Counted from the first letter of the stretch, positions 22,365-53,440 are shown. The stretch is DNA of 64,000 bases from Candidatus Microgenomates bacterium (GCA_016182045.1 JACOYE010000007.1:98121-162120), one strand, 5' to 3'. Program-made: numbers and translations. The notes: generated by a model from the letters alone, not told the origin.

Positions 22365-23561
22365 CTAGCGAATAAAATCTAAGTAGTTCTCCTGGTTAAT
22401 CAGTTGCACTGTTGTTCCATATTCACTGGTAAAGGACTTTGAACCCTTACTCAACAAACCAGTTCCATATTTAAACTCAAATGCCTTTAGCTCCTCATTG
22501 ATGGGTTTTTCTATGTAATCTACCTCTGCTCCTGAATAGCTTCTCCAAAAGTTGGACTCAATACTTTTCCCTTGATTGGCAAATCTCTTTTTTCTTTCAA
22601 CAAAGAGAAAGTTCTCCCATAAAAATCCTGCATCAGCTCTTAAATCAATAGAATTGAAGTCACCAATTAAACTATTCCTAATACCCAAATCTACAAAATA
22701 GATTTTATAACGGCTGCCAATTTCCCTTCTGGGGTTTTTGGAGTAAGGATGGGCACTGACAACTACATAAGATTTTTCTAAAATATCCAGGTAACTAACC
22801 ACTGTCTTCCTGTCTATCTTAAGTCTGTTTGACAGCTCATTCTCGTTAACCTCTGAACCAATCTGATAAGCCAGAGCCTTTGTTAAATCTTTAATAGCTT
22901 GGGAATTTTTAACCCGGGCAAATGCCAATATATCCTTAAAAAGGTAGCTTTCCACAATCCGCTCAAGAAGGGATTGTTTTTGTTCGGGCGTATTTGATAG
23001 ATAGACTTCTGGATATAAACCATAAAGCATTACTTGTGGCAACAGGGCGTCTGCTTCATTTTTAAGTATTACCTCATGAGTGTCTCCTGCTTGCAAGGCT
23101 TCAGTAAACGAAAAAGGGTATAAAGTAAAATCTAGATAACGTCCAGTTAACGGATCACTAAGTTTATTCTTTAAATCAAAACTGGAAGAACCCGTTGCCA
23201 GCACTCGTACTTTCGGAAAATTATCATAAATAATTTTTAATGTCAGTCCTGGATTATCCAGCCATTGAGCCTCGTCAATCAACAAAACATCAACCTCTGA
23301 GAGTAATCTTTCTAAGATTGCCTTTGAGTTGGTGTTTACCGCTGCATTATCCTCTGCTAAATCACAGTTTAGGTATAACACCCTCTTACCTTCTCCTTCC
23401 AGCCTTTTGCTAATGTCTTTAGCTAAAGTGGTTTTACCAACCTGTCTAGCTCCCAGCACCAAAATAATCTTTCCAGATGATTTTAGACTTGAGAATATCA
23501 AATTTTCAATTAATCTTGGTATCATAATCCCAATATTAATACTAATTCTGGGATTTGTCAA
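22365..23561 (-). CDS. AAA_14-type ATPase with DUF4143-like C-terminal domain (COG1373 family), paralog 1
   Basis: Walker A GARQVGKTTL, Walker B LLIDEAQ; same architecture as 38781..40091 and 40951..42210. Confidence 0.7.
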   Translation of the reverse strand: MTNPRISINIGIMIPRLIENLIFSSLKSSGKIILVLGARQVGKTTLAKDISKRLEGEGKRVLYLNCDLAEDNAAVNTNSKAILERLLSEVDVLLIDEAQWLDNPGLTLKIIYDNFPKVRVLATGSSSFDLKNKLSDPLTGRYLDFTLYPFSFTEALQAGDTHEVILKNEADALLPQVMLYGLYPEVYLSNTPEQKQSLLERIVESYLFKDILAFARVKNSQAIKDLTKALAYQIGSEVNENELSNRLKIDRKTVVSYLDILEKSYVVVSAHPYSKNPRREIGSRYKIYFVDLGIRNSLIGDFNSIDLRADAGFLWENFLFVERKKRFANQGKSIESNFWRSYSGAEVDYIEKPINEELKAFEFKYGTGLLSKGSKSFTSEYGTTVQLINQENYLDFIR

Positions 23562-28895: not shown

Positions 28896-29903
28896 GTGGT
28901 AAGCTTAAAATTAATGTCCAAAATATCTTTCTATCTAATTTCAGCTGTAACCTTTTTTCTGGTGATGACACTCTTTCTAAAATTCCCGCAGGTTATTCAA
29001 GCCCAGTCAATACCAACCATAGGAGATCTTAAGGTAGGAGAATCTAAACAAATCACTGTATCCGGTTTAGACGCAAAGGAAAAATACTATTGGAGTGAAT
29101 CAAAAGTGACATCTGTTATCCTTGGCCAAACTAACACTCCTATTTTTTATGGTTGTTTTGACTCCAGTGACAAGGGGGAGATACAACGGACCATAGGACC
29201 GTTTTCAACACCAGGACTTTATAAATTAGTAATCGATAGGTCTGAAACTGGCTGTACACCCTCGGGCAATCCAGTGGTATCACAAGACTTTTCGGTGGGA
29301 GGACCAACAGGGCAGAGTTGTTGTACTGCAGCTTTGCCGCGTTATGATAGAAATAAAGATGTCTGTGCAGATATAACCCTACATAATCCTCTACTTCCAC
29401 AACAGACGATTGAAGTAGAAACAGAATGTTCCAACACAAACCCTAAAAGCTACTGTGAACCAGAATCTTTACAATGTTTTACCACTAAAACTCAGGTAAA
29501 GGCCGGGAAAATATGTTTCGATCCTCACGAGCCAGGTTTTGATAAAAATAAACATATTATTTGCGCTAAAAGTGGAGGACAAGAAATTACCGGATGCACT
29601 GATAATAAAGACAATCCGGGGATTGCCACTGCCATTGGCTGTATACATACCTCACCGGTTGGATTTGTTAAAGACGCTTTAAAGTTTATCATTGCCATCT
29701 CTGGGGGTTTGGCATTTTTGATGATGCTTTTGGGAGCATTTCAGATGCTGACATCAGCCGGAAATCCCGAGACTTTGCAGGCCGGACGGGAAAGATTTCA
29801 ATCTGCCATCATCGGGCTTTTGTTTGTGATCTTTGCAGTTTTGCTGCTTCGCATCATTGGAGTTGATATACTGGGACTTGGAAAACAGTTTGGAGGACCA
29901 TGA
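28896..29903 (+). CDS. secreted Cys-rich protein fused to a C-terminal VirB2/TrbC-like T4SS pilin module
   Basis: signal peptide; ~20 Cys in residues 80-240; C-terminal LMMLLGAFQMLTSAGNPETLQAGRERFQSAIIGLLFVIFAVLLL matches the two-helix motif of the five downstream pilin paralogs. Confidence 0.5.
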   Translation: MVSLKLMSKISFYLISAVTFFLVMTLFLKFPQVIQAQSIPTIGDLKVGESKQITVSGLDAKEKYYWSESKVTSVILGQTNTPIFYGCFDSSDKGEIQRTIGPFSTPGLYKLVIDRSETGCTPSGNPVVSQDFSVGGPTGQSCCTAALPRYDRNKDVCADITLHNPLLPQQTIEVETECSNTNPKSYCEPESLQCFTTKTQVKAGKICFDPHEPGFDKNKHIICAKSGGQEITGCTDNKDNPGIATAIGCIHTSPVGFVKDALKFIIAISGGLAFLMMLLGAFQMLTSAGNPETLQAGRERFQSAIIGLLFVIFAVLLLRIIGVDILGLGKQFGGP

Positions 29904-30298
29904 TGATAATGTCAAATTACAAATTTCAAATTACAAATGAAGGTCAAAATCCAAATACTAAAAAGAAATATGATCTTGAGGAAAGGACTGCCAAGTTTGG
30001 GGAAAAGATTCTGGAGTTTGCCAAAAAAATACCACAAAACCCTGTAACATTACCAATCATCAGTCAGCTGGTACGTTCAGGCACCAGTATAGGAGCTAAT
30101 TATTGCGAAGCAGACGGGGCGGAAAGCAAAAAAGACTTCAGACATAAAATAGGAATTTGTAAAAAAGAAGCTAAGGAAACTAAACATTGGCTTAGGATGG
30201 TAGCAAAAGCTGTACCAGACCTTGCACCGGAAGCAAGGGAGTATTGGCAAGAAGCTCAGGAATTGACTTTAATTTTTTCGGCAATTATCAGAAAATAA
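29900..30298 (+). CDS. four-helix-bundle protein (TIGR02436-like, 23S rRNA IVS-protein family)
   Basis: SIGANYCEADGAESKKDFRHKIGICKKEAKETKHWLRM signature. Confidence 0.7.
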   Translation: MMIMSNYKFQITNEGQNPNTKKKYDLEERTAKFGEKILEFAKKIPQNPVTLPIISQLVRSGTSIGANYCEADGAESKKDFRHKIGICKKEAKETKHWLRMVAKAVPDLAPEAREYWQEAQELTLIFSAIIRK

Positions 30299-30407
30299 AA
30301 TATAATGACAAAATCCAAATTACAAATGGCAAATCAAACCTAAATGTCAAAGACAAAAAATTTGTCATTTAGGCTTTGAAATTCATTTGACATTTGGACT
30401 TTGAGCT

Positions 30408-30728
30408 TTGATATTACCAGCTATGTTAAACGATTTACTAAAAGATAGCGGTGTCCCAAATTTTGGCGGTGCAAATGCCAATTTGGGAGCGGTTCTTTCA
30501 GGCCTTTTAAATATTACCTTCTTTATAGCAGTATTTATGACCTTTTACTGGCTGGTCTGGGGATCATTCCAATATATTTTAGCTCAGGGCGAAAAGGAAA
30601 AACTGGCCAGGGCCAGGGAAAGAATCAAATGGGCCATAATAGGACTGTTAGTAGTCTTAATGTCTTATTCTTTTGCCAGATTTGCTTCTGAAATATTCCC
30701 ACCGGGAAAAGGAGGACTACCATTCTAA
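30408..30728 (+). CDS. VirB2/TrbC-like T4SS pilin family protein, paralog 1
   Basis: two hydrophobic helices flanking W(G)x..xxGEKEKLARARERIKWAIIGL loop motif. Confidence 0.5.
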   Translation: MILPAMLNDLLKDSGVPNFGGANANLGAVLSGLLNITFFIAVFMTFYWLVWGSFQYILAQGEKEKLARARERIKWAIIGLLVVLMSYSFARFASEIFPPGKGGLPF

Positions 30729-30778
30729 TAGAAGGAGTAGATATTGGAGAAAAGTTTGGCTTTGGGGATATTAAATCT

Positions 30779-31033
30779 TTGGGAGAAGGAACTTCCAGAT
30801 TGGTTGGACCGATGTTTGCTGCGGCTGCTGTAGCAGTAATTTTATACTTTTTATTTGGAGCATTTTTCTATTTAAGATCAGCCGGAGATAAAGAGGAGAT
30901 CCAAAATGCCAGAAATATGATGACTCATGCTATTGTTGGATTTATACTGTTAATATTTGCCTTTCTGATTTTACAGTTTTTGTTGTATAGTTTATTTGGT
31001 CAACAGATTCCCTTTATCGGAGGAGAAAAATGA
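30779..31033 (+). CDS. VirB2/TrbC-like pilin paralog 2
   Basis: LFGAFFYLRSAGDKEEIQNARNMMTHAIVGF motif. Confidence 0.5.
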   Translation: MGEGTSRLVGPMFAAAAVAVILYFLFGAFFYLRSAGDKEEIQNARNMMTHAIVGFILLIFAFLILQFLLYSLFGQQIPFIGGEK

Positions 31034-31497
31034 TAGTTAAAACTTTTTTGTTTATATTATTTACCGTTTACTCTCTACTATTTACTGTCCCTGTTTATGC
31101 CCGGCCATGTTACCAAGCTCCTGATGGATCACTAATATGCCCTACCCTTTCTCCTGCTCCGACACCAAATGCCATAGAAAGCATTTTTGGCAAAATTATC
31201 CCTCCTGATGCTTTAAAAGGCCTCTTACAACAAGACCCCACCGGGGCCGGGGCCATCAGTAATTTTTTATCCAGACTGGTGGCTTTAATTTATGTTTTTG
31301 CTGCCATAATTTTAATCTTCATGCTGCTTTGGGGAGCCTGGGACTGGATGACCTCTGAGGGAGATAAGGAAAAGATCCAATCTGCCAGAAATAAAATCAT
31401 CAATGCTTTTATTGGTATTTTACTTTTTGCGGTGGCTTTTGCAGTTATCCGAGTTCTGGGACAATTTACCGGTTTTACCTTCTTTGTGGGACAATAG
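31030..31497 (+). CDS. VirB2/TrbC-like pilin paralog 3
   Basis: signal peptide; LLWGAWDWMTSEGDKEKIQSARNKIINAFIGILLFAVAFAV. Confidence 0.55.
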   Translation: MIVKTFLFILFTVYSLLFTVPVYARPCYQAPDGSLICPTLSPAPTPNAIESIFGKIIPPDALKGLLQQDPTGAGAISNFLSRLVALIYVFAAIILIFMLLWGAWDWMTSEGDKEKIQSARNKIINAFIGILLFAVAFAVIRVLGQFTGFTFFVGQ

Positions 31498-31536
31498 CCC
31501 CCCTTGACAAGTAATTTAGTTTGTGACTAAGATTAG

Positions 31537-31920
31537 ATGGCTATGCGAAAATTAGCACTGGTAGGATCATCAATAGTCTATCTTCTTTCCGCAGTGATGG
31601 TATTTGCCCAATCACCCACCCCACAAATCAAAATTTCTCCTCCCACCCAAGGTTACTCTGATCTGGGGGCTTTTGTGACCAATGTTTTAACTTTGTCTTT
31701 TATAGTGGCTGTCCTAGTAGTTTTGGTGATGCTGATTTGGGGAGCTTTTGAATGGATCACTTCCGGTGGAGACAAGGAAGCAGTAGGAAAAGCCAGAAAC
31801 AGAATCATCAATGCCTTGATTGGCCTGGCTGTTTTGGCTGTGGCTTTTGCCCTATTTAAAGTGGCAGGTCAATTTTTGGGCTTCCCCACCACAGAATTTA
31901 CCATTCCCACACCACCTTAA
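31537..31920 (+). CDS. VirB2/TrbC-like pilin paralog 4
   Basis: signal peptide; LIWGAFEWITSGGDKEAVGKARNRIINALIGLAVLAVAFAL. Confidence 0.55.
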   Translation: MAMRKLALVGSSIVYLLSAVMVFAQSPTPQIKISPPTQGYSDLGAFVTNVLTLSFIVAVLVVLVMLIWGAFEWITSGGDKEAVGKARNRIINALIGLAVLAVAFALFKVAGQFLGFPTTEFTIPTPP

Positions 31921-31965
31921 TAAGTTAGGTTGACCATCATACTAAATTGGTGCTAAGGTTAAGAT

Positions 31966-32313
31966 ATGGGTCCTGATCCAGCTGGCTTAAAACAAATAGA
32001 GGATGTTTTTACCAACATTATCTCGGTGGTGGTGGGGTTGGGTTTTATTACTCTTTTGGTTTTGCTTGTTTGGGCCGGAATTAAATATTTAATCTCAGGG
32101 GGAGAGCCAAAAGCCATCCAGCAGGCTCATCTAATAGTCACCTGGGCTCTTTTGGGAGTCCTATTTTTGGCCATAGCCTGGCTGGTATTACAACTTGTGG
32201 GAGCTTTTACCGGACTTCCTGTAACTATCTTTAATGTCAGAGCCCTTTGCGAAGTGGGCGGTACCCAATTTTGCACCCCCACTCCAAGTCCAAGTCCAAC
32301 TCCCAGCCCTTAG
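31966..32313 (+). CDS. VirB2/TrbC-like pilin paralog 5 (diverged), Pro/Ser/Thr-rich tail
   Basis: LVWAGIKYLISGGEPKAIQQAHLIVTWALLGVLFLAIAW; C-terminal TPTPSPSPTPSP. Confidence 0.45.
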   Translation: MGPDPAGLKQIEDVFTNIISVVVGLGFITLLVLLVWAGIKYLISGGEPKAIQQAHLIVTWALLGVLFLAIAWLVLQLVGAFTGLPVTIFNVRALCEVGGTQFCTPTPSPSPTPSP

Positions 32314-34202: not shown

Positions 34203-37200
34203 CTAAATTATCTTATCGGTCAACCAATCTTCAATTGATTCAGATCCTGTTGTCTTATTCCCTCCTTCATAGATTTTAAACTTTTTAGAAAGGAAGCTAT
34301 TCCAATATTTTTCCCTTCTGTATACATCAGCTCCACCTCCTGGGCTCTCATCCTGCAACCAATCATAAAATCCTCTTCGTCCTTCCTCCCCATACAAAAA
34401 TGCATCTTGTCTATTCCTGGCAGTACCATTATTTTTTAGGATATCTTTGTCTGATTCAATGGCAGTATTAAAACTACCATCCGACAAAAATACCTCTACT
34501 TCCTCTAGATTTAAAGCTCCTGCTGAATTATCAGTGGCTGAATACATCACCCTCATATCATGGGTAACCTTTGTTAACCTGCCAAAACATTCTTTAAATT
34601 TATATAGAAACGGTATGGTCTTTGTTGCACTATCTAAAAGGTCTCCAGAGATAGCGTCTCCAGCATATCCATGCATAGTTTCATTATTATCAGTTGGTTT
34701 TTCATACAAACCAAAAACCCACTCTCCTGTTTGAGGATCAACATAGCCAACTGAATGATTAAACATTTCAACTGCTTTATCCTGCACTTCAAAAATTTTC
34801 GTCAGTCCAAATTGTCCCACTATGCCTTGGTGCGAAATCTTCTTGATTTCATCTGCCATTACCTTAACTGCTCCAGATAATCCATGTACTCCCCATCTGG
34901 GACCTGCGGCATCATGTTCAAAAGGAGCATCAGCAATTTCAGCACCAAGTCTTCTGGATAAACGAGAAGTTTGCTGAGCTGCAAATTCCACAAAACCTAA
35001 TGTAAACCTATCCATTCCTGCCCAATCCTCGTTCCTATAACCTACCCGCATCCTGCCTATATAACCATCTCTAGGAAGAAATGCTCTATATAATCCATGC
35101 TTCCCTCTTTGTCTATCTTGAAATGACTCTAAGACGGCAGCTGCTACAAGGGCAACTTCTCTTTGTTGTTGAACATCTTCAAACTTTTTAACCCGTCTTA
35201 AAGTTGGATCTACAATCAAAAGTTGGGTGGCTAATATATCTTCATCTTCCCAACGAGACAAACCGTCTCTGATTCGTTCTGCTACCTTAAAGATACGAGG
35301 AGCCAATATAGTCACTCTATTATTGCCCTGGTAATACCAATAGGTATGGTCAGTATAACGGTTACGAAAATCGCTACTTTGGGCAGCTATTTGGAAAGTT
35401 GCTACTGCTTCCTCAACTAAAGTATCCCCTACTAGCTTTGCTTTGGTATTTTTGTTGATATTGTCATAATTAACAAGCTGACGATCATTAGGATCAGCTT
35501 TATCATAAATAATAACTTTACCATCCTGATCAAACTCTAATCCTATTGGATTGCCGTTATTATCAAAAGAAAGTTTAACTTCTTTGCCTGCCTGGTTAAA
35601 ACCCAAGATTTCACCATTTTTGAATTTTGTGAATTGACCTGTATTAGGCTCTATCCTTCCCAGCGGTCTTTTAAAAGTCATTGGTTTTGGTTGACCATCT
35701 GGACCTAACTCATCATCCAAAAGTTGAGCTGTATATCCCTTTGTTCTTAATTCTTCTGTCAACCTTGCTCTTGCTTCTCTTACTTTTTGCCTTCTGACTT
35801 TTGCCGGTTCGTTTGCATATTTCATCTTGGTCCAGGTAACACCCCATTGGACAAAGTTTTCTGCCTGGTAAGTTGGGATATTGTCAACAAAGTCATGTTT
35901 ATCTTCAGGGCTTAGCCGTGCATAAAGATCTTGCCAATATTTAGGAAAGCTATCTAGTCTTTTGCCACCGCTTTCCCCACCTCTCATTTTGTATAACATC
36001 CAGCCTATCTCGAACGATCTTCTATTAGCTTGCGGGAGAGAATCTCTTATTTTTTCAATTTCCTCTACTTTAAGTGCATCCGTATTTATTACTTTTGTTT
36101 TGTCTGTATCTATCCATTTCAGTCTTAATCCATCACTCACACTCTGGTAATATTGAATATGAGGATTTCTGTCCACATATAAAAATCCTCTACCTCTTCT
36201 AGCTTTCTCTCCTAATACTCCCTGCATTTGAAAAGCAATATCAAAATTAGCTGCTGCTTCATCATAAGCTGCCTTGTATGCTTGTCGATCTCGCGGACTT
36301 AATCGATCAATTGCCTTTTCGCCTTTTTCTAATTTTATCTGACCCCTAATTATAGCTTGTCTGAGTTCCCGAAGCTGTACCTGAATTCTTCCTAAATCTA
36401 TTGACTTTCTGATGGTTTCCGGGAGGTCAGCAAAAGCTGGATATTTTCTTTGATACTGTCTTTGATCTTCGGGCTTACTTTGATCTTCGGCAAAACGGTC
36501 TTGATCTTCTTTATAGCTTAGATAATTTTTAATGTGGTAATCACCTTTATCAAAACCTTCGTATAATCTTTTAAACTCTTCATCGGATTTGGTCAGGCCG
36601 AGTCTTTTTAAATTTGCTCTGTAAGCATTAAGCCTGGCTTGATCATGTACACGCTTTGCCTGATTATCTCCACCTAGTAGATCAATCGCTGTTTCGCCTG
36701 GCTTCAATTTTATTCTACCAGTGCTGATATCGTTTTCTATACTTCGAAGATCTGACTTAATTCTCTCTAAATCGCCGGCCGCATCAATTTTCGCTTGTAA
36801 ATCATCAGAGTTAAAATACTCATCCCTAGGATCATAATCCTTAAGCACAATACCCATTCCTCTTTCAATTACCATCTCCTGAATTTGATCTTGTTTGAAA
36901 TGACCAGCAACAATATCTAACTCTCCTCTTTCTCCTACAGGATTATTATAAATATCCATTACATCTTCGAAGTCAAAAATCTCAGTAAAAACAGCTACTC
37001 CCCCTTTTCCTGCTCGATATAATGCTACCCATCTGGCTGGCCCTTCATCCAAAGACATTGCCACCATTGCCTCTTTTTTCTGCTTGGGGTTATAAACCTC
37101 ATTTGCATAGTTACCCACAAAAACATATAATAATGCTTCCAGTTCCAACCTATTTTCTTCCAAAAAATCAGCATCGATATTACCTTCTCTGACCTGTCTT

Positions 37201-38627
37201 CCTCCTTCTGCACCGAAACTCTCGATGAAATTTTTGACATGTTCAAAAATAGCAGCTGGTGATTTACCTACAGATCCAGACCTTATCATTTGGAAAAAAG
37301 TTTCTTTTGCTATCAGAAATTGTTCCGGGGTTCGAGCAGTAACATGATAATATTTAGGATAACTGGTTGTTTCCCAATAAGTTTCCCTTTGAGCTCTACT
37401 TACTTGTTCAGGAGTAGGAACAGACCACTCACCTTCTATGTGATCTGGTTGAGGTTGACCATTACGACTCCTTTCTAATCTACGGCTAGCCCAATCAATA
37501 TATGCCTCCCCAACGCCTGCTAATTGCTGGGGAAGATTAGGATCTTCTAAGCTTCTTTCACGAAATTCTACTAAAGCTATAACTCTAGCTCTGGCAATCC
37601 CTCGCTCAAATAGAACATCTGCTTCCTCAGGAGGAATACGAGGGTTAATAATCTGTTGATATACAGTATTCAAAACCGCATCAACTTCTTTTAAAAGCCC
37701 CTGATTTTTTGCCTGTCTAAAATAGACTTGCAAATCTTTTTGGGCATCTTGCAGCTCTTGTTGGGATGTTGTATTGGCATACTGATTTCTTCTAGTCTCT
37801 ATAGACCTGTTAGGATCATTAGAATCTGGTAATGATTCAGCAGGAAAACCTTCAGCTTCTTCAGTCCCTTCAAGCTGATATTGAGCACGAAACTGCTCTA
37901 CCATTTCATTCATCTCCTGTATTGCTTGTGGCAAAGGAGGAAATTCTGGGGGCTGTAGTGGCTGACCAGGTTCTCTTTGTGCTGGTCTTGGATAAGCTTT
38001 ATGAGGGCCAAAAGGATCTGGATCGTTTCTTTCCCCACATAATGCATCTACATATTCCTTTAATTCTTGAAGTCGTTGTGCATAGACAGGGCCATTTACT
38101 TCGTTGTATCTTTCTTCATAAGTCATGGTGGTCCTGAATCTGACAATTTCTTCAACAAGCCATCTGCCTCTTTCCGGGCTGGTTTCCCATTCTGGTCCTC
38201 TGGGTGGTGGCTCCCGATCTCCACCATTCCCTCCATCTGGGGGGGGCGGGCCACCACCTCTTCTAGGTTCTCCAGGTTCAAAAGGAGGAAGCTCACCAAA
38301 ACCCGGGGGACGTTCTACTACTGGGGGTATTTCTGCTTGTTCTGAAGAAGTATCGGCAAGCGGCTGTTCTGATGTTTGCTGGGGAGCTGATGGTGGAATA
38401 TTCTCAGGAATTATTGAGGGATCTAAGGCGGATTCTGGAGCACCTTCAAAAATATGCTCAAAGGGTGGGGGTATGGGGGTTATAGGAGGCGCTGATTCTG
38501 TTGCCACTCCGCTTGCGGGTGGTACCTGTTCTCCCATTCCTACAGCATTAGGAGGAGCTAAAGTTGTCGTTGAACCTGTTTCCGCTGATGAAGCATCTGC
38601 CATGTTTATTCTTTCTACTTGGGCCAT
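34203..38627 (-). CDS. giant (1474 aa) hypothetical protein, Pro/Glu/Ala-rich disordered N-terminus, internal ~45-aa duplicated module
   Basis: single uninterrupted ORF; no Walker motif, TM or signal peptide seen; promoter TTGACA-17-TACACT at rc of 38648-38676. Confidence 0.45.
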   Translation of the reverse strand: MAQVERINMADASSAETGSTTTLAPPNAVGMGEQVPPASGVATESAPPITPIPPPFEHIFEGAPESALDPSIIPENIPPSAPQQTSEQPLADTSSEQAEIPPVVERPPGFGELPPFEPGEPRRGGGPPPPDGGNGGDREPPPRGPEWETSPERGRWLVEEIVRFRTTMTYEERYNEVNGPVYAQRLQELKEYVDALCGERNDPDPFGPHKAYPRPAQREPGQPLQPPEFPPLPQAIQEMNEMVEQFRAQYQLEGTEEAEGFPAESLPDSNDPNRSIETRRNQYANTTSQQELQDAQKDLQVYFRQAKNQGLLKEVDAVLNTVYQQIINPRIPPEEADVLFERGIARARVIALVEFRERSLEDPNLPQQLAGVGEAYIDWASRRLERSRNGQPQPDHIEGEWSVPTPEQVSRAQRETYWETTSYPKYYHVTARTPEQFLIAKETFFQMIRSGSVGKSPAAIFEHVKNFIESFGAEGGRQVREGNIDADFLEENRLELEALLYVFVGNYANEVYNPKQKKEAMVAMSLDEGPARWVALYRAGKGGVAVFTEIFDFEDVMDIYNNPVGERGELDIVAGHFKQDQIQEMVIERGMGIVLKDYDPRDEYFNSDDLQAKIDAAGDLERIKSDLRSIENDISTGRIKLKPGETAIDLLGGDNQAKRVHDQARLNAYRANLKRLGLTKSDEEFKRLYEGFDKGDYHIKNYLSYKEDQDRFAEDQSKPEDQRQYQRKYPAFADLPETIRKSIDLGRIQVQLRELRQAIIRGQIKLEKGEKAIDRLSPRDRQAYKAAYDEAAANFDIAFQMQGVLGEKARRGRGFLYVDRNPHIQYYQSVSDGLRLKWIDTDKTKVINTDALKVEEIEKIRDSLPQANRRSFEIGWMLYKMRGGESGGKRLDSFPKYWQDLYARLSPEDKHDFVDNIPTYQAENFVQWGVTWTKMKYANEPAKVRRQKVREARARLTEELRTKGYTAQLLDDELGPDGQPKPMTFKRPLGRIEPNTGQFTKFKNGEILGFNQAGKEVKLSFDNNGNPIGLEFDQDGKVIIYDKADPNDRQLVNYDNINKNTKAKLVGDTLVEEAVATFQIAAQSSDFRNRYTDHTYWYYQGNNRVTILAPRIFKVAERIRDGLSRWEDEDILATQLLIVDPTLRRVKKFEDVQQQREVALVAAAVLESFQDRQRGKHGLYRAFLPRDGYIGRMRVGYRNEDWAGMDRFTLGFVEFAAQQTSRLSRRLGAEIADAPFEHDAAGPRWGVHGLSGAVKVMADEIKKISHQGIVGQFGLTKIFEVQDKAVEMFNHSVGYVDPQTGEWVFGLYEKPTDNNETMHGYAGDAISGDLLDSATKTIPFLYKFKECFGRLTKVTHDMRVMYSATDNSAGALNLEEVEVFLSDGSFNTAIESDKDILKNNGTARNRQDAFLYGEEGRRGFYDWLQDESPGGGADVYRREKYWNSFLSKKFKIYEGGNKTTGSESIEDWLTDKII

Positions 38628-38689
38628 GGTTTGTAGAAGACAGTCCCAAAGCCCTGCTAATTTTTAGTGTAGGACTTAGGTAAGCTAAC

Positions 38690-38780
38690 TGTCAAATCCT
38701 TTCTTGGGGAAAGTTTACACTGAAGCGTTGCGAAGTGCTTGATTTATTCCTTACAAAATCCTGATATAAATGAAGCTAAA
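38690..38780. repeat. R-family intergenic element, copy R1
   Basis: TGTCAAATCCT..GGGGAAAGTTTACACTGAAGCG..GCGAAGTGCTTGATTTATTCC..AAATCCTGA. Confidence 0.6.
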
Positions 38781-40091
38781 CTAATTATTGAGAGGATCTA
38801 ATAACCATTTAAACATTGGAATTACCTTAATTTTGCCATTTTCAAAATCTACACTATCCTCATCTTCAGTTAATATCACTGCAGAATTTATGTTAAGTTC
38901 TTGCATAGCTGCTATTAAAGCCTTAACTTCTCTTTTTTGTGTCTCTTCATCCGCCAGACTTTGACAAACCTGAATTAAAATTTTTTGTTTAGGAAGATAA
39001 AAATCAACTTCTAAATCATTCTGAGTTGTGTAATAATAAATTTCTTCAAACAGTCTTCTTAGGGTTAAGAATACTAGATTTTCCAAAAGTTTGCCTCTAT
39101 TTTCAGAAAAAGAAAATGCCACTGATTTTATTAAACCTGTGTCGATGGCATAAATCTTTTTATTGGCAATTTGCTGTTTTTTGATAGAAAAAGCAAATTT
39201 ATTGATAGTAAACATCAACCAGCTGGTTTGTAGATAATCAATATAGTTTTTAACAGTGTTAACACTACCTAATTTAAGAAGTTCTTTTAACTTATTAAAT
39301 GAAACCAGAGAAGATATATTGCTGATCAAATAAAAACTTAGTTCTTTTAAAGCTTTAGTTTCTTCTATCTTGTAGCGTACAGCCACATCTCTGTAAATCA
39401 CATCATCATATAAAGTTTTGTGTAAGTTAATCTCAGGATACTTTAAGGCATCAGGTATACCCCCAGTGACTATATAATCATTAAAATATCTTTTCAGCTT
39501 GCTCTTTTGTAAGGTGGTTAAATAAGCTAAATTGGGCGTTTTCTGTTGTTTAAATGCTAAAAACTCTGCAAATGAAAATGGGAAAAGTTCAATCGGTGTA
39601 TACCTACCGGTAAGTTTGGTTCCCAGTTCTTTACTAAGTAAAGCAGCATTTGAGCCGGTGATATAAAACTTGCAGCCTTCATCAATCATCCGACGGACAA
39701 ATCTCTCCCAACCTATAACATTTTGTACTTCATCTAATAAAAATATCTTTCTTTGTCCAAAGAATTCCAGTTGGGTCTCATATAAGAGATTAAAATCATC
39801 TGCAGTAAAATTTAAAAATCTTTCATCTTCAAAGTTGACAAAATAATAGTCATCCGACGAATAAAATTTGTGGGCAATTTGAGCAAGCAGTGTAGATTTA
39901 CCAACTCGTCGTAAACCAGAAATTACTACGGCATAAGAAGAATTTGCATACTTTTTAATTTGAATAAGATTTTCTCTGGTTACTCCTAATTCTTTCTTTT
40001 TGAATTGCTCTGACTGATCCAATAACAAAGTTTTCAGTAAATCCTTTTTCATCGTCAGTGAAATTATAACTAATAAAGTTTTCACTGTCAA
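38781..40091 (-). CDS. AAA_14/DUF4143 ATPase (COG1373 family), paralog 2
   Basis: Walker A GLRRVGKSTLL, Walker B FLLDEVQ; likely true start at internal MKKD (40052) given TTGACA-16-TATAAT promoter inside annotated start. Confidence 0.7.
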   Translation of the reverse strand: MTVKTLLVIISLTMKKDLLKTLLLDQSEQFKKKELGVTRENLIQIKKYANSSYAVVISGLRRVGKSTLLAQIAHKFYSSDDYYFVNFEDERFLNFTADDFNLLYETQLEFFGQRKIFLLDEVQNVIGWERFVRRMIDEGCKFYITGSNAALLSKELGTKLTGRYTPIELFPFSFAEFLAFKQQKTPNLAYLTTLQKSKLKRYFNDYIVTGGIPDALKYPEINLHKTLYDDVIYRDVAVRYKIEETKALKELSFYLISNISSLVSFNKLKELLKLGSVNTVKNYIDYLQTSWLMFTINKFAFSIKKQQIANKKIYAIDTGLIKSVAFSFSENRGKLLENLVFLTLRRLFEEIYYYTTQNDLEVDFYLPKQKILIQVCQSLADEETQKREVKALIAAMQELNINSAVILTEDEDSVDFENGKIKVIPMFKWLLDPLNN

Positions 40092-40137
40092 TGAAAACTT
40101 AGGACTGATTTTAGTTTAGAGCTTTGTTAAACTTACT

Positions 40138-40277
40138 GTCAATCCTTCGACTCAGTTTACCCTGAGCTTGTCGAAGGGCTCAGGATTATAATCTCCTTTC
40201 TGGGGTAAGTTTACACTTCGACTACGCTCAATGCTTGATTAAATTCTAATATAATCCTGACGGGATGGAGGTTAAAC
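40138..40277. repeat. R-family element, copy R2 (with extra imperfect hairpin insert)
   Basis: TGTCAATCC...GGGGTAAGTTTACACTTCGACTACGCTCAATGCTTGATTAAATTCTAATATAATCCTGACGGGATGGAGGTTAAAC. Confidence 0.6.
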
Positions 40278-40294
40278 TTTACTCTTAAAATATA

Positions 40295-40573
40295 CTACTC
40301 CTCTTTGCCATACAAATCATCATGAGTTCCTAAGGCTGAAAAATATGCTATAGTTTCTTCTCCGCTACTTACTTCCTCATAAAATGCTCTATAATCTGCT
40401 GTTATATCAATACTCCTAAAACCTAAATAATGCTCTCGTAAAGGATGATTATTAAGCTGTGGATCATTAGGATCTTTCAAGAATACTCTGATCCGAGTCT
40501 CAAAATTTTTGCGGATTCTAACATTGACCTTTTTAAGCTTTTTCAAGAAATCAGGGTCATATTGAATCTTCAT
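40295..40573 (-). CDS. RelE/ParE(YafQ-like) family toxin
   Basis: HPLREHYLGFRSIDITADYRAFYEE pattern; 4-nt overlap with antitoxin. Confidence 0.6.
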   Translation of the reverse strand: MKIQYDPDFLKKLKKVNVRIRKNFETRIRVFLKDPNDPQLNNHPLREHYLGFRSIDITADYRAFYEEVSSGEETIAYFSALGTHDDLYGKEE

Positions 40574-40884
40574 ATACCCTGTTTTTTAAGATAAGCAATT
40601 GCATCCTCAGCATTATCAAAAACAGGAGAACCTTTTCCTTCTTTTCTATTTTTCTGTGCTTGCTGCAATGTTTTAATGAGATACTCACTGGGCTCTCCGT
40701 TTCCATATACACTAAAACTAACAGTTTTTGTCTTGATGAATTGCTTTAAAAAGGCCTTGATAATAACGGATAAAGGCATGCCAAGAGCTTCAGCTGTTAT
40801 CTGTGCTTCTTTTTTAGTTCGTGGATCAATTTTGGTAGTAATTACTGCATAACTCATGGTATTCCATAGTATATACAATAGCAT
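40570..40884 (-). CDS. RelB/DinJ-family antitoxin
   Basis: KIDPRTKKEAQITAEALGMPLSVIIKAFLKQFI ribbon-helix-helix pattern; probable start at MSYAV (~40857) because TTGACA-16-TATATA promoter overlaps annotated start. Confidence 0.6.
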   Translation of the reverse strand: MLLYILWNTMSYAVITTKIDPRTKKEAQITAEALGMPLSVIIKAFLKQFIKTKTVSFSVYGNGEPSEYLIKTLQQAQKNRKEGKGSPVFDNAEDAIAYLKKQGI

Positions 40885-40891
40885 ATACTTT

Positions 40892-40950
40892 TGTCAAATT
40901 TTGTGCTTGATTTAATTCTAATGAAATCCTGACGGGATGGAGGTTAAAAA
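40892..40950. repeat. R-family element, copy R3 (short form)
   Basis: TTGTCAAATTTTGTGCTTGATTTAATTCTAATGAAATCCTGACGGGATGGAGGTTAAAAAC. Confidence 0.6.
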
Positions 40951-42210
40951 CTATTTAAGCTTTGACTGTTCTAAAAGCGCATGAAATGGAAGAACATAAA
41001 TCTTAGTCTTATCTATTACTGCCTCTTGTTTATCGCCAAGATGAATAAGGTATGCTTTTTTTGGCTTATATTTTCTCAAAAAACTTCTGAAAGAGCGAGG
41101 CATTTCTAATTTTGACATCCTTTTATGTTTTGCTTCTAGCGGCACTGCCTCCAAACCTGTAACAAGAATAAAGTCAACCTCAGCCCTATCTCGTGTCCGC
41201 CAAAAATGAATTTGAGTCGGACTCATATCAAATTGCTCCCTAAGCATATTGAAAATGAGATTTTCAAATAAGTGCCCACTTAAAGGTTGCGGTATTCGTG
41301 GCAAACCAAACAGTCCCAGCAGAAAGTTACGAAGTCCAATATCATAAAAATAATATACCGGAGATTTACTAATCTCTTTTCTGACATTCCGGTAATACGG
41401 GCTCACCTTCTTAATTATGAATGTTTTCTCTAAATACCATAGGTAGTGTTGGACTGTTTTATCAGCGATCCCAATAGTTGAAGAAAGCTCGGTAGTATTG
41501 ACCAAGCTGCCGATTTGAGAGGCAATAACCTTAAGCAGGTTAGTAAAAGCTTCTTCTTTCTCAATATTGAGTAGTTTTTTAATATCCTGCTCGATATAGC
41601 TTTTATAGATTTCCTCCATTGCACTTTGTTTTTTCCATACAGTATCAGAGAGAATAACTTGAGGATAACCACCAAAAACCATATATTCCTCAAGAAACCG
41701 CTGCGTCTTGTCTTTCTCCAGGGCAAAAAACTCCCCTAATCTATCTTCATACCTATACTCTGTCCTAAAGTTAATAAATTCCTTTAAACTAATTGGATCA
41801 ATGCTAAACATCCTCTTGCGCCCGGCCATAGATTCGGAGATTTTAGCTTTTAACTCTAAGCTACCCGAACCTGAGATGATAAACTTATACGGTAAGTTCA
41901 TATCAGCAATACCTTTTAAGAAAAGTTCTGCGTTTTCTTTACGTTGAATCTCGTCAATAAACACATAGGCTTTCTCTTTACCAACTTGAAGTTCGATGTA
42001 TGAAATTAACTGACCTTGGGAATCAAAAAAGGGCCTGTGATCATCTATATCAAGGTTTAAAAAAAGAGTTTTCTCTCCTTTTGCCTTTAGTTTACCTTCC
42101 AAATACTTCATCAGGTAAGTTTTCCCTACCTGTCTGGGCCCAATGAGGATTGTCATTTCTTTTTCTGTAAGATGTCCTTCTAAAGCCTGGGTTATCGTTC
42201 TTTTGATCAT
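40951..42210 (-). CDS. AAA_14/DUF4143 ATPase (COG1373 family), paralog 3
   Basis: Walker A GPRQVGKTYLM, Walker B VFIDEIQ. Confidence 0.7.
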   Translation of the reverse strand: MIKRTITQALEGHLTEKEMTILIGPRQVGKTYLMKYLEGKLKAKGEKTLFLNLDIDDHRPFFDSQGQLISYIELQVGKEKAYVFIDEIQRKENAELFLKGIADMNLPYKFIISGSGSLELKAKISESMAGRKRMFSIDPISLKEFINFRTEYRYEDRLGEFFALEKDKTQRFLEEYMVFGGYPQVILSDTVWKKQSAMEEIYKSYIEQDIKKLLNIEKEEAFTNLLKVIASQIGSLVNTTELSSTIGIADKTVQHYLWYLEKTFIIKKVSPYYRNVRKEISKSPVYYFYDIGLRNFLLGLFGLPRIPQPLSGHLFENLIFNMLREQFDMSPTQIHFWRTRDRAEVDFILVTGLEAVPLEAKHKRMSKLEMPRSFRSFLRKYKPKKAYLIHLGDKQEAVIDKTKIYVLPFHALLEQSKLK

Positions 42211-42309
42211 ATACTACTATTTTAGTACCGAATTTCTAGAAGTCAAGTAGTAAAATTATCGGGTAAGAGTAGTTGGTTTGTATCCGGCATAGAATTTCCC
42301 AAACTTCTT

Positions 42310-42385
42310 TGTCAAATCCTGATCAGTTTACACTAAGCGATGCGTAAGTGCTTGATTTCATTCTGATGGAATCCTAACGAAATTA
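42310..42385. repeat. R-family element, copy R4
   Basis: TGTCAAATCCTGATCAGTTTACACTAAGCGATGCGTAAGTGCTTGATTTCATTCTGATGGAATCCTAACG. Confidence 0.6.
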
Positions 42386-42398
42386 CGGCTATATTGTA

Positions 42399-42872
42399 TT
42401 AAGTGAGATTTGCTGCCAAAGTAAATCCGAGTTTAGAATACCAATCATCCATAGAGAAAATAACATCAGTATTTAATTTTTTGGCAGTTGCTACAACCAG
42501 TGCATCAAAGACTGTTTTTTTCTTGCTACCTTTTGGGTCAAATACTTTTAAAGCCTCCTTAAGTAAATCTACATCTGTATTTTCTATTGATAACGACCCA
42601 TCTGTTATTCTCTCCACAATCTTAGCAGCAATATCTGACCTTTTAAGTTTTCGTATCAGTGTCGTGATAGTTTCCGTAATTGTGGTTAGGGGAAAAACTG
42701 TTTGAGCATCATGCTGTAATAGTTTGGCAACGGTTTCAACGGCTTTCTGATGACTTTTGTCTTCTTCGTGCAAAATAGCAATTAAAGCATCAGTGTCTCC
42801 TACCACAATCAGTTGTTTTTTAATCCCAGGTGTACTCATCATGTTTTTCAGATAAATCAGCTGGTAAACCAC
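42399..42872 (-). CDS. PIN-domain toxin (VapC-like)
   Basis: LIVVGDTDALIAIL ... conserved D/E positions; probable start at internal MMSTPG. Confidence 0.6.
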   Translation of the reverse strand: MVYQLIYLKNMMSTPGIKKQLIVVGDTDALIAILHEEDKSHQKAVETVAKLLQHDAQTVFPLTTITETITTLIRKLKRSDIAAKIVERITDGSLSIENTDVDLLKEALKVFDPKGSKKKTVFDALVVATAKKLNTDVIFSMDDWYSKLGFTLAANLT

Positions 42873-43092
42873 TCCCCTTGGGAATAATACCAGCCAGATC
42901 CAGGAGTACTTTGGTAGATTGCTTATTCTTCAAACTCTTGAGTCTTTCCAAATCATCTAATGAAACAATTGCCACCTGCGGTTTTCTTTTGGAAACCACT
43001 ATAGCAGGCTGCCTGGTTTTCTTGACTTTATCAAAGACTCTCCGGTAGTTTCTAAGAATATCTCTGGCAGTTACAATTGTGGTATCCAACAT
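42820..43092 (-). CDS. Phd/YefM-family antitoxin
   Basis: TIVTARDILRNYRRVFDKV...PAIVVSKRKPQVAIVSLDDLERL; TTGACA-17-TATTAT promoter at rc of 43093-43140. Confidence 0.6.
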   Translation of the reverse strand: MLDTTIVTARDILRNYRRVFDKVKKTRQPAIVVSKRKPQVAIVSLDDLERLKSLKNKQSTKVLLDLAGIIPKGSGLPADLSEKHDEYTWD

Positions 43093-43114
43093 ATAAAAAC
43101 ATAATACACTATTT

Positions 43115-43468
43115 CTACATATTTGTCAAGTAATTTTTTGACATTTCTATTGACATTTGGAGAGGAGTTAAATTTAATCCTGGTATTACCTTTTTTTTGC
43201 ACAGGTGCAGGCTGGAGCTACTCCTGCCGCATTCATCACATCTATCCCATCCACCGCTGCCGCCCCCAGAATGTTCTGACCAACTCCCATTCCCACTCCC
43301 ATAGCCTCCATGAGAAGTTCTGATCTGATGAGAAGATCCAGTAGTCTGTAATCTAAAACGACCTCTACCTCTAGGGATGGTTAATGGCAACTTATCTAGT
43401 GGCTCAACTGGTAATGGACTGGTCTCGGCCACTGAGACAGCTTCTGGAACAATGGCTTCTTTAGACAT
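43115..43468 (-). CDS. hypothetical Gly/Ser-rich small protein with CDECG motif
   Basis: 117 aa; GGYGSGNGSWSEHSGGGSGGWDRCDECGRSSSS; GC-richer than surroundings; uncertain. Confidence 0.3.
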   Translation of the reverse strand: MSKEAIVPEAVSVAETSPLPVEPLDKLPLTIPRGRGRFRLQTTGSSHQIRTSHGGYGSGNGSWSEHSGGGSGGWDRCDECGRSSSSLHLCKKKVIPGLNLTPLQMSIEMSKNYLTNM

Positions 43469-43547
43469 ACCTTACATTCCGCAATCGCGGCTGATACAAA
43501 ACTTATTTTAAAGTATCAATTATCATTTTGGCAAGTAGACTATCTAA

Positions 43548-43922
43548 TTAAGCTTTTAAGGCTTTAATATGATATTTCAGTATTTTCTCATCAACAGTAA
43601 TTAGAGTTAATTTCTCTACTTTTGCTTGAGCTATTATGATTCTATCAAATGGGTCTTTATGATAATCCTCTAATACCTCAATTTCTAGAACATGGTCAAT
43701 ATTAATTGGAAGTATAGTAAACAGGCTTTTTTTAATCCCACCTGCAATATCTCTTGGAACTTTCAAACCTTTTCTCTTTTTTATAATAATCTCCCAGACA
43801 GTTGCAACAGAAACAAATACCATATTATTTGGGTCAGAAATTACCTTCTGAAAAGCTTTAGAGAATCTAGTGCTTTTCTCCATAGCCCAAATAAAAACTT
43901 GGGTATCAAGGAGATAATTCAT
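43548..43922 (-). CDS. vapC: PIN-domain toxin VapC
   Basis: LLDTQVFIW...VATVWEIIIK...HKDPFDRIIIAQA classic VapC pattern. Confidence 0.75.
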   Translation of the reverse strand: MNYLLDTQVFIWAMEKSTRFSKAFQKVISDPNNMVFVSVATVWEIIIKKRKGLKVPRDIAGGIKKSLFTILPINIDHVLEIEVLEDYHKDPFDRIIIAQAKVEKLTLITVDEKILKYHIKALKA

Positions 43923-52324: not shown

Positions 52325-53440
52325 TTATATCTTCACCGGCATGACGATAAATTCCAACCCCTCCACTCCCACCGGCTTAATCAAACAAGGCGATAAAGAC
52401 CCGGAAAATTCCATCATTAGCTGTGAAGAGGGGGCATTGCTGATGGCATCTAATAAAAATTTGGAGTTAAAGGCAATCTGCATTTGATCCCCCTCTATCT
52501 GAGCATCGACCTGATTTTGTTGGCTGCCCAACTCTTTGGCTGAAGATTCCAGACTGATCTGGTTATTTTGAGCGGTCAAAGTGGTAATATTGGTTTCGTT
52601 TTTGGCAAAAACTAAAGCCAGTTTGATGGCTTTCAACAGCTCCTCCCGATCTAGCAGCGCTCTAGTTTTAATCTCGGTGGGAATAATTTTTTCCCAGGAA
52701 GGAAACTGACCCTCAATCAACCTTGAGGAAATAATAGTTTGGCCAATGGTAAAGATGGCCTGATTTTGGTTTGGCGATAGAGAAATATTAACTTCACCAG
52801 CATTCTCTTCCCCAATAACTCTTAACACTTCCTCAAAAGTTCTTTTGGGTATTAGGCTTTTAAACCCTTCTGCTCCTCCGCCTTTGGCGTTGCTTGGTAC
52901 CAATTGTACTTGCCTGTGAGCCAGCCTAAAACCGTCTGTGGCCACAAAATCCAATTTTCCGTCTTTAACGTCAGTCAGAATTCCAGTCAAAACAGGTCTG
53001 CCTTCATCAACCGCAGCAGCATAAAGAATTTGAGCTGATGTTAAAAAAACCTCCTTGGGGAAGGTGACCCCCTTACCTTCCGATAGAGGGATAACAGGAA
53101 ATTCCGAGGCCAAGATGCCATTAATTTGAGCCTTTAGTTTGCCGGATTGAATAGATAGGATTTCTCCTGTTGCTTCCAGCTCGATTTTGCTTTGACCCAA
53201 ACCCGAGACCAGATCAACCAAAGTTTTGGCAGGAATTGTCAGCTCACCTGATGAAACTCCTTCTACCGAGACAAATTTGATCACCCCCACTTCCAAATTG
53301 GTGGCGGCAATTTTTAATTTATTACCTTCCAGGGACAATAAAATGTTATCTAAAACCGGTAAGGTAGATCGAACCCCAACAGATCTGCTAACTGATTGTA
53401 AAACAGGAAGTAAGTCTTGCTGTAATACGGAAAACTTCAT
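52325..53440 (-). CDS. dnaN: DNA polymerase III beta sliding clamp DnaN
   Basis: full-length three-domain clamp, MKFSVLQQDLL...PVLDNILL. Confidence 0.9.
   Translation of the reverse strand: MKFSVLQQDLLPVLQSVSRSVGVRSTLPVLDNILLSLEGNKLKIAATNLEVGVIKFVSVEGVSSGELTIPAKTLVDLVSGLGQSKIELEATGEILSIQSGKLKAQINGILASEFPVIPLSEGKGVTFPKEVFLTSAQILYAAAVDEGRPVLTGILTDVKDGKLDFVATDGFRLAHRQVQLVPSNAKGGGAEGFKSLIPKRTFEEVLRVIGEENAGEVNISLSPNQNQAIFTIGQTIISSRLIEGQFPSWEKIIPTEIKTRALLDREELLKAIKLALVFAKNETNITTLTAQNNQISLESSAKELGSQQNQVDAQIEGDQMQIAFNSKFLLDAISNAPSSQLMMEFSGSLSPCLIKPVGVEGLEFIVMPVKI

Follow-up and report, generated by a model that had tools for sequence, protein, structure and literature searches.

What does a protein of 1,474 residues that matches no known family do in the middle of a bacterial secretion locus? 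The question is raised by a 64,000-nucleotide stretch from Candidatus Microgenomates bacterium (GCA_016182045.1 JACOYE010000007.1:98121-162120), referred to here as the window. This is a chromosomal, low-GC (33-45%) region from a candidate-phyla-radiation (CPR) bacterium, and it contains the genes of a type IV secretion system (T4SS). A first-pass annotation, made from the window's sequence alone, had described a giant Pro-rich protein inserted antisense next to the pilin genes, had named it a candidate secreted effector, surface protein or DNA-processing protein, and had proposed co-occurrence with T4SS-like genes in other genomes as a check. We find that this giant protein, as we call it, belongs obligatorily, and in a single copy, to the chromosomal T4SS locus in a Microgenomates (Daviesbacteria-type) clade, and that it occurs in divergent types that are incongruent with the machine genes beside it.

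Linkage of the giant gene to the secretion locus

The open reading frame (ORF) of the giant protein starts with ATG and is uninterrupted over 1474 codons in the ORF listing of the window, as first annotated. Its product, of about 160 kDa, is identical to the NCBI entry MBI2039682.1, 'hypothetical protein HYT18_01290 [Candidatus Microgenomates bacterium]'. With 99 homologues, the ORF is no product of chance but a real gene. A word-indexed search of 5.8 billion proteins returned 28 full-length homologues (1290-1603 aa, 25-74% identity), none of which contains a Pfam domain; a profile search added four more, and an exhaustive HMMER profile run against 1.84 billion cluster representatives yielded 75 proteins, nearly all 1200-2141 aa long, with E no higher than 1e-3 and, for 74, no higher than 1e-10. 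The family is tiny. Its hidden Markov model (HMM) spans both the N-terminal (300-600) and the C-terminal (1050-1450) domain in more than 80% of members, and the architecture is therefore conserved. Thirteen distant members gave no significant Pfam match, the giant protein itself matched nothing in Pfam, NCBIfam or PHROGs, and PDB sequences returned only noise (E above 0.3) in one single-sequence and three profile searches. With the sequence-library and PDB searches empty, no homology to a housekeeping family emerged. Because tblastn found no relative of the giant gene in plasmid and phage collections, cargo of a mobile element is ruled out. Two species-representative genomes that carry the gene are labelled Candidatus Daviesbacteria.

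We compared 14 homologue loci: L001-L009, reached through giant homologues (L002 duplicates L001), and L010-L014, reached through the remotest relatives (E 1e-17 to 1e-61). In every one of them the giant gene stands tail-to-tail with a gene for a VirB6-like protein of 508-663+ aa, and a pilin array follows the VirB6-like gene wherever the contig extends. On the other side of the giant gene there is a variable interval and then, usually, a divergent module encoding PrgI, TrsD, VirB4 and a hydrolase. The trio of giant, VirB6-like and pilin genes is intact in rearranged loci as well: the VirB4 module is not its neighbour in L004, and the M23 gene of L014 lies beyond the pilins. As an independent test, metagenome contigs were searched with the VirB6-like protein, which yielded 16 loci. 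All 11 that were informative (at least 400 nt downstream) had a convergent giant-family ORF of 1077-1589 aa in the same place. Seven of these ORFs match the 28-sequence HMM; the other four (1077-1589 aa) match only a broader 84-sequence HMM, at E 1e-12 to 1e-27, and start with a ...MAE motif. The co-occurrence test set beforehand thus holds in both collections of loci. The context is that of a Patescibacterial T4SS cluster (virB4 within about 20 genes, PrgI/VirB3, TrsD and VirB2-like pilins, all conserved), and the locus belongs to this known kind.

The giant protein and the machine proteins diverge in different patterns. In L006, identity to the window is 83% for VirB4, 61% for TrsD, 59% for PrgI, 55% for the VirB6-like protein and 73% for the giant protein. 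In L003, L007, L008 and L009 the same proteins stand at 82-84%, 63-65%, 58-60%, 59-61% and 30-35%, and in L001 at 71%, 48%, 46%, 45% and 52%. All-against-all comparison of VirB4 places the window, L003 and L006-L009 in an ingroup (82-88% identity) with L001 as the outgroup at 70-72%; the outgroup for the VirB6-like protein is L001 and L004. The giant proteins group as the window, L006, L001 and L004 (48-73%) and as L007, L008 and L009 (48-72%), with L003 and L005 each alone at 30-39% to the others. At least four groups, 30-39% identical to one another, can be told apart among the giants of the window, L003 and L006-L009, and the outgroup loci L001 and L004 carry the window's giant type (50-56% identity). 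In L012 and L014, identity to the window is about 50% for PrgI and 44-45% for the VirB6-like protein, yet the tblastn match to the giant protein covers residues 1112-1226 only. Within a type (window versus L006), by contrast, the giant protein is better conserved, at 73%, than VirB6, PrgI and TrsD, at 55-61%. Because giants are conserved within types and the types lie off the machine phylogeny, the pattern reflects type replacement and not relaxed constraint or simple fast drift. The giant tree disagrees with the machine tree and shows no co-variation with the VirB6-like protein. These comparisons indicate that the types are probably ancient and have been exchanged or differentially retained.

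Two of the loci compared here, L006 (CAYICZ010000008.1) and L007 (CAZJNI010000001.1), come from metagenome-assembled genomes titled 'uncultured Gammaproteobacteria bacterium'. Because their T4SS locus is of the Microgenomates type, with a VirB4 82-83% identical to that of the window, these labels are probably wrong.

Protein architecture, promoter and surroundings

The giant protein combines a Pro/Gly-rich, probably disordered N-terminus with two large all-helical domains, between which lie helical modules, variable in nature, and beta-hairpins (Table 1). Residues 1-145 contain 22.8% Pro, 11% Glu, 11% Gly and 9.7% Ala and are hypervariable in the alignment of homologues. The first-pass annotation had recognised this composition but had drawn the region too long, at about 180 residues; the Pro-rich string that it quoted, PPPPDGGNGGDREPPPRGPEWETSPERGRW, is found at residues 127-156. 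The extreme N-terminal peptide is kept although at least 130 hypervariable residues follow it, and both this peptide and a conserved C-terminal tail, WLxDKxI, persist even in the remotest members of the family. Judged by its conservation, the peptide could be a recognition signal; alternatively, it could belong to a conserved translation-initiation region with a second in-frame ATG.

Residue conservation was taken from 84 full-length members aligned in the fast MAFFT mode, and its figures are approximate. Y376, W418, P457, F467, G565 and G568 of the N-terminal domain are kept in at least 90% of members, as are E152 and N672. The near-universal residues of the C-terminal domain are Y1096, Q1100, D1140-P-T..R1145, S1168, R1225-R1226, K1310, R1350, Y1436 and K1472, the last being the third residue from the C-terminal end; they include a cluster of Arg, Lys, Asp and Tyr. 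The internal duplication reported earlier is genuine: its two copies share 44% identity over 61 columns (BLASTP, E = 3e-9), and both are kept in homologues, some of which have an extra copy. The two large domains are not duplicates of each other, a relation to which hhalign gives a probability of 0.8%. No Walker or metal-binding motif is conserved in the family alignment, and the sole GxxxxGK-like string, at residues 884-891, sits in a poorly conserved stretch.

The absence of ATPase, transmembrane and signal-peptide motifs, noted in the first-pass annotation, was confirmed. Besides the empty Pfam, NCBIfam and PHROGs searches, no transmembrane segment or signal peptide is present in the giant protein, whose highest 19-residue Kyte-Doolittle mean (0.84) is far under the transmembrane threshold, and a hydrophobicity scan found a transmembrane-like segment in none of the 99 family members. 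The protein is soluble.

AlphaFold2 models were built with family alignments in two pieces. The model of residues 1060-1474 (mean predicted local distance difference test, pLDDT, 81.1; predicted template modelling score, pTM, 0.82) is all-helical except for short hairpins, and that of residues 146-1075 (pLDDT 82.9, pTM 0.68) is helical, with a beta-hairpin-rich part at about 970-1075. Foldseek searches of the PDB gave, for the C-terminal model, only matches with E above 1 and a template modelling (TM) score below 0.2, and, for residues 146-1075, only weak matches of a generic kind, to ARM/HEAT and karyopherin proteins (TM about 0.1, E 0.047 at best). The C-terminal model found nothing among the viral structures of BFVD. 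No relaxase, recombinase, topoisomerase or CagA was among the Foldseek PDB matches listed (50 per model). Judged from these predicted models, the giant protein is without a known fold relative within reach of the searches made.

Upstream of the giant gene lies a sigma-70-like promoter. The first-pass annotation had identified its TTGACA and TACACT hexamers correctly and had counted the spacer as 17 nt instead of 18. The promoter, as TTGACAGTTAG...CTACACT or TATGCT, is kept upstream of the orthologue in six other loci (L003, L005-L009), even where the giant proteins are only 30% identical, and this conservation supports a functional role. Its proposed derivation from a repeat (R1) was not borne out: the promoter sequence has no second copy in the window, which rules it out as part of a repeat there. 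It does lie about 40 nt downstream of one copy of a repeated element, AGGATT-N8-14-AATCAAGC. Four copies of this element occur in the window, against 0.02 expected by chance, and they lie at cassette junctions. The element is found just upstream of the giant-gene promoter in nine other loci (L003, L005-L009, L015, L019 and L022), and L007 has extra copies at its cassette junctions.

These cassettes fill the interval between the giant gene and the next gene position upstream, which we call the slot, with small toxin-antitoxin or defence genes that differ between genomes: nine genes in L005, AbiEii in L003, eight plus an AAA_14 gene in L007, and two to four each in L006, L008 and L009. The interval has the look of a hotspot into which toxin-antitoxin and defence cassettes insert recurrently and possibly in a site-specific way. 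The idea that the giant gene was itself inserted antisense is wrong, the gene being ancestral at its position and the AAA_14 and toxin-antitoxin cassettes being the insertions. Overall, what was first seen in the sequence stands, with three corrections: the promoter spacer, the extent of the N-terminal region and the status of the gene as an insertion.

Table 1. Features of the giant gene and its surroundings (window coordinates unless a locus is named)
Feature	Position	Strand	Remarks
Giant ORF, 1474 aa + stop, MBI2039682.1	34203..38627	-	soluble, without transmembrane segment or signal peptide
N-terminal peptide MAxxERxNMA[DE]G, residues 1-12	38594-38627	-	family-wide; only ...MAE left in the remotest members
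N-terminal region, residues 1-145	38193..38627	-	Pro/Glu/Gly/Ala-rich, hypervariable, probably disordered
First conserved block, residues 146-205, SPERGRWLVEEI...RN.DPF	38013..38192	-	predicted helical hairpin, pLDDT 90-95
Conserved N-terminal all-helical domain, residues 296-605	36813..37742	-	
Duplicated module, copy 1, residues 609-667	36627..36803	-	within a region of variable length and copy number
Duplicated module, copy 2, residues 734-794	36246..36428	-	runs into conserved ANFDIAFQMQGVLGEK block
Variable insert rich in beta-hairpins (GEILGFNQAGKEVKLSFDNNGNPIGLEFDQDGKVIIYD), residues 970-1075	35403..35720	-	absent or shortened in several homologues
C-terminal domain, residues 1076-1474	34206..35402	-	all-helical, most conserved part
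Sigma-70-like promoter, TTGACA-18 nt-TACACT	38695..38666	-	38 nt upstream of ATG
Repeated element AGGATT-N8-14-AATCAAGC	38737-38762, 40233-40258, 40905-40930, 42350-42375	-	first copy promoter-proximal
Five VirB2-like T4SS pilin genes (PF18895)	28896..32313	+	array interrupted by PF05635 four-helix-bundle gene
VirB6-like convergent partner, 611 aa	32353..34188	+	about 8 hydrophobic segments; invariant neighbour
AAA_14/DUF4143, RelB and PIN cassettes	38781..43922	-	inserted between giant gene and slot gene
Upstream slot gene, 462 aa	44233..45621	-	no family match; one weak hydrophobic segment near C-terminus, residues 405-423
Divergent T4SS module: PrgI/VirB3-like 348 aa, TrsD/TraC-N-like 249 aa, VirB4 591 aa, M23 peptidase 741 aa	45963..51868	+	
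Slot gene in other loci	L001 7214-9934; L003 7496-9004; L006 6367-7731; L007 3443-4849; L008 7412-8767		

The 611-aa convergent partner ends 14 nt from the stop codon of the giant gene and, in the loci examined, is always placed between the giant gene and the pilin array. It matches no Pfam, NCBIfam or PHROGs family and is probably a highly diverged VirB6 analogue, the 'missing' VirB6 of Microgenomatia. At the far end of the locus, the M23 gene is followed by a gene for a Big_5 protein and then by dnaN (52325-53440), dnaA (54076-55392), rnpA, yidC and a jag-like gene. Neither a coupling-protein nor a relaxase domain was found among the locus genes scanned.

Other members of the locus vary in their own ways. 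The slot gene between PrgI and the giant gene encodes unrelated protein types across loci: the window and L008 share one (66% identity), L003, L006 and L007 another, and L001 and L004 have proteins of 700-930 aa. These types are uncorrelated with those of the giant protein, and the slot proteins lack transmembrane-like segments, except for the single weak segment in the window's. The M23 peptidase (49643-51868, +, 741 aa) is 30-35% identical between loci with VirB4 at 82-84%, so that very fast evolution extends to its large non-catalytic N-terminal part.

The gene inside the window's pilin array (29900-30298, +) encodes a PF05635 protein (23S rRNA IVS protein, a bAvd-like four-helix bundle), and a similar gene lies directly upstream of the giant gene in L010 (123-515) and L014 (1454-1828). 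No reverse transcriptase or template/variable repeat pair was seen, which leaves a link to diversity-generating retroelements unsupported. Three paralogous AAA_14 + DUF4143 ATPase genes of the window occur within 20 kb (22365-23561, 38781-40091 and 40951-42210, all on the minus strand), two of them in the cassette region; elsewhere, the L005 pilin array is split by an AAA_14 fragment, and the cassette region of L007 includes an AAA_14-like gene.

Possible roles of the giant protein

We tentatively favour the reading that the T4SS exports the giant protein, independently of Sec, as its dedicated substrate or host-contact module, although we put its chances somewhat short of even. According to this reading, the protein would be made in the cytoplasm from its own conserved promoter and recognised, through small conserved features, by a translocon of VirB4, TrsD, PrgI and the VirB6-like protein. 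It would then leave through the T4SS and pilus and act at or inside the host cell, and its variable bulk would set the host or target, which would explain why divergent types have been swapped into near-identical machine loci. In favour are the linkage to the locus, the conserved promoter, the conserved ends of the protein, the incongruent types, and the lack of a type IV coupling protein (T4CP) or relaxase in the scanned genes. The effector named in the first-pass annotation is plausible on sequence grounds, since it fits a protein that has no Sec signal, a conserved promoter of its own and types at odds with the machine genes. Export, recognition signals and a host target are what we infer from these features.

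Several points weigh against this reading. The giant protein has no recognised T4SS signal, and in the model its C-terminal tail takes the form of a folded helix (pLDDT about 91) and not that of a disordered signal. A universal single copy, a fixed position and two conserved domains are more typical of a machine subunit than of an effector; effectors are usually present in some genomes only and in differing numbers. The loci compared cover a part of each genome, so that paralogues elsewhere are possible. A helical protein of 160 kDa would need unfolding before it could be transported, and the locus shows no evident coupling protein or chaperone. Moreover, divergence alone is not diagnostic, because the M23 hydrolase diverges as fast (30-35%).

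A bolder version strikes us as rather doubtful. It would make the giant protein the long-sought cargo of the Patescibacterial T4SS, a novel fold that passes through the VirB2-like pilus into the host, where the conserved, Arg/Lys/Tyr-rich C-terminal domain would either target a host component or open up a conduit for nutrient uptake and the types would set the host range.

Among the alternatives, the one that survives best, and that we nevertheless regard as somewhat unlikely, is a cytoplasmic scaffold or adaptor subunit that docks on the inner-membrane complex of VirB4, TrsD, PrgI and the VirB6-like protein and stays inside the cell. Such a subunit would stand in for a coupling protein, for VirB8 or for the hydrophilic extension of an 'extended VirB6'. 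The single copy per locus, the fixed position abutting the VirB6-like gene and a two-domain architecture kept out to the detection limit all agree with it, as does the shortness of the Microgenomates VirB6-like protein (540-660 aa), which lacks such an extension. 'Extended VirB6' proteins, with extensions of no known function, are a recognised class in the available text of PMC12857230. The only fold matches are ARM/HEAT solenoids, typical interaction scaffolds, and Southlakia epibionticum SEML1_0011 and SEML1_0013, located between PrgI and the pilins, carry ARM-repeat domains; the giant protein's own matches are, however, weak and not significant (E 0.05-0.5, TM about 0.1). Giants that differ at 60-70% of residues accompany near-identical VirB4, PrgI, TrsD and VirB6, which is unexpected for a tightly docked subunit. 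Furthermore, the giant gene is convergent to the VirB6-pilin genes and has its own promoter, and none of the 99 members has a transmembrane segment or is fused to a transmembrane or VirB6-like domain. The same lack of any hydrophobic segment at transmembrane level in the giant protein and its relatives, together with the lack of a PF04610 or PrgH match in the Pfam scan, excludes VirB6, TrbL or PrgH itself, extended forms included. Origin by splitting of an 'extended VirB6' is likewise rejected, no fused relative being found among the 99, with functional equivalence possible. A coupling protein (VirD4 or TcpA) or T4SS ATPase is excluded by the absence of a transmembrane segment and of any NTPase family in Pfam or NCBIfam at E up to 1.

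It is improbable that the giant protein is a lineage-specific cytoplasmic protein unrelated to secretion, serving for example cell architecture or regulation, and held beside the T4SS genes by frozen gene order near the replication origin. What ties it to the T4SS is gene context, and the whole dnaN/dnaA region is syntenic across these genomes, including the non-T4SS genes SpoIID, orf182 and orf603. Against this, the gene is nested between two T4SS modules, the trio of giant, VirB6-like and pilin genes survives rearrangement in L004 and L014, and the family occurs only in T4SS context, with no plasmid or phage match and only 75 representatives among 1.84 billion proteins.

A nucleic-acid- or nucleotide-handling protein that feeds the T4SS, whether an unconventional relaxase, a DNA- or RNA-processing protein or a binder of host nucleic acid, is very improbable. 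Arg, Lys, Tyr and Asp make up most of the near-universal residues of the C-terminal domain (D1140, R1145, R1225, R1226, K1310, R1350 and Y1436). R1404 lies 32 residues from Y1436, and K1310 comes after a beta-hairpin, a spacing that loosely recalls the catalytic residues of tyrosine recombinases. The locus has no recognisable relaxase, and the authors of PMC12102498, in its available text, allow for very different relaxases yet to be found; a 2026 preprint describes a Patescibacterium that feeds on the RNA of its host, with what may be T4SS pili at the cell interface. Yet no relaxase, integrase, nuclease, helicase or topoisomerase matched in Pfam or NCBIfam even at E up to 1, profile searches of the PDB gave only noise, no Walker or metal-binding motif is conserved, and the confident models found no such folds in the PDB with Foldseek. 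More specifically, a conjugative relaxase (MOB) is rejected for want of a profile match, the models being almost entirely helical with no relaxase among the Foldseek matches listed, and a tyrosine recombinase or type IB topoisomerase is rejected despite the suggestive residue spacing, with no PF00589 match and none among the Foldseek matches listed (model pLDDT about 90).

Of the roles first proposed, then, membership of the secretion locus holds, together with the lack of housekeeping homology. The insertion is wrong, and the two other roles are not supported: a classical surface protein is unlikely for a product without signal peptide, transmembrane segment or anchor, and DNA processing is unsupported by any relaxase, recombinase or nuclease match in sequence or fold. 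The giant protein is a concrete candidate for a substrate, or an unrecognised subunit, of the Patescibacterial T4SS. Were it exported, its types could mark the host specificity of uncultured lineages; as a subunit, it would widen the known architecture of monoderm T4SSs. The family is limited to an uncultured clade, and any function assigned to it would be read from sequence.

Comparison with known secretion systems

In the available text of PMC12102498 (Quinonero-Coronel et al. 2025), Patescibacterial T4SSs are MPF_FATA-like, have pilin arrays, lie near dnaA and usually come without a relaxase and a nearby coupling protein. The window resembles them in its VirB4, TrsD-like, PrgI/VirB3 and PF18895 pilin genes and its cell-wall hydrolase, in its chromosomal position beside dnaN/dnaA, and in having no relaxase or coupling-protein domain among the scanned genes. 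It differs in that a soluble protein of 1100-2100 aa is a constant member of the locus, which the available parts of the published accounts (PMC12102498, PMC10633639 and PMC12857230) do not describe. VirB6 is scarce in Microgenomatia as far as the available text of PMC12102498 goes; here, by contrast, its place in the locus is taken every time by a polytopic protein without a Pfam match together with the giant protein.

The T4SS is essential in S. epibionticum according to the available text of PMC10633639 (Wang et al. 2023). It is essential for epibiotic growth in the sole species tested, and what it moves and how is treated as open in the parts of PMC10633639, PMC12102498 and PMC12857230 at hand, which allow for the export of proteins or the uptake of host material. 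In S. epibionticum ML1, a cultivable Saccharibacterium, two large proteins are encoded between PrgI and the pilins, SEML1_0011 (998 aa, ARM repeat) and SEML1_0013 (1088 aa, VirB6-like plus ARM repeat), whose helical ARM-repeat-type domains were assigned from structure; the essentiality columns of Table S1 score SEML1_0011 as ES (essential) in all three and SEML1_0013 as NE/ES/ES. Compared by annotation and position, the giant gene occupies the equivalent interval and its product is likewise mostly helical. Unlike the giant protein, the SEML1 proteins carry a KEGG permease (K01992) or VirB6-like annotation, suggesting membrane domains, and their genes are co-directional, whereas the giant gene is convergent.

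The extensions of extended VirB6 proteins, such as the C-terminal domain of F-plasmid TraG and the VirB6 paralogues of Rickettsiales, are large, hydrophilic, VirB6-associated and of unknown function in the available text of PMC12857230, and the giant protein is like them in these respects. It differs in being a separate polypeptide encoded on the opposite strand, with no fused form in 99 relatives, whereas those extensions are fused to a polytopic domain; no sequence or fold similarity between the two was detected. The C-terminal domain of F TraG is variable and confers allelic specificity in entry exclusion, a variability that parallels the swapped types of the giant protein.

CagA, from the Cag T4SS of Helicobacter pylori, offers a functional analogy. 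It is large and mostly helical with its own fold and a long disordered region, is encoded in a T4SS island, lacks a Sec signal and occurs in divergent allelic types; it is a dedicated substrate whose export needs a coupling protein and a chaperone. The likeness extends to neither sequence nor structure, and membership of the CagA family is excluded: PDB sequence searches were empty or noise, and no CagA was among the 50 Foldseek matches listed per model. Unlike CagA, moreover, the giant protein is encoded in a locus that shows neither coupling protein nor chaperone, and its translocation is presumed. Set beside the available parts of the published accounts, what is new here is the giant component, which is undescribed, universally linked to a secretion system of known kind and without a known fold relative.

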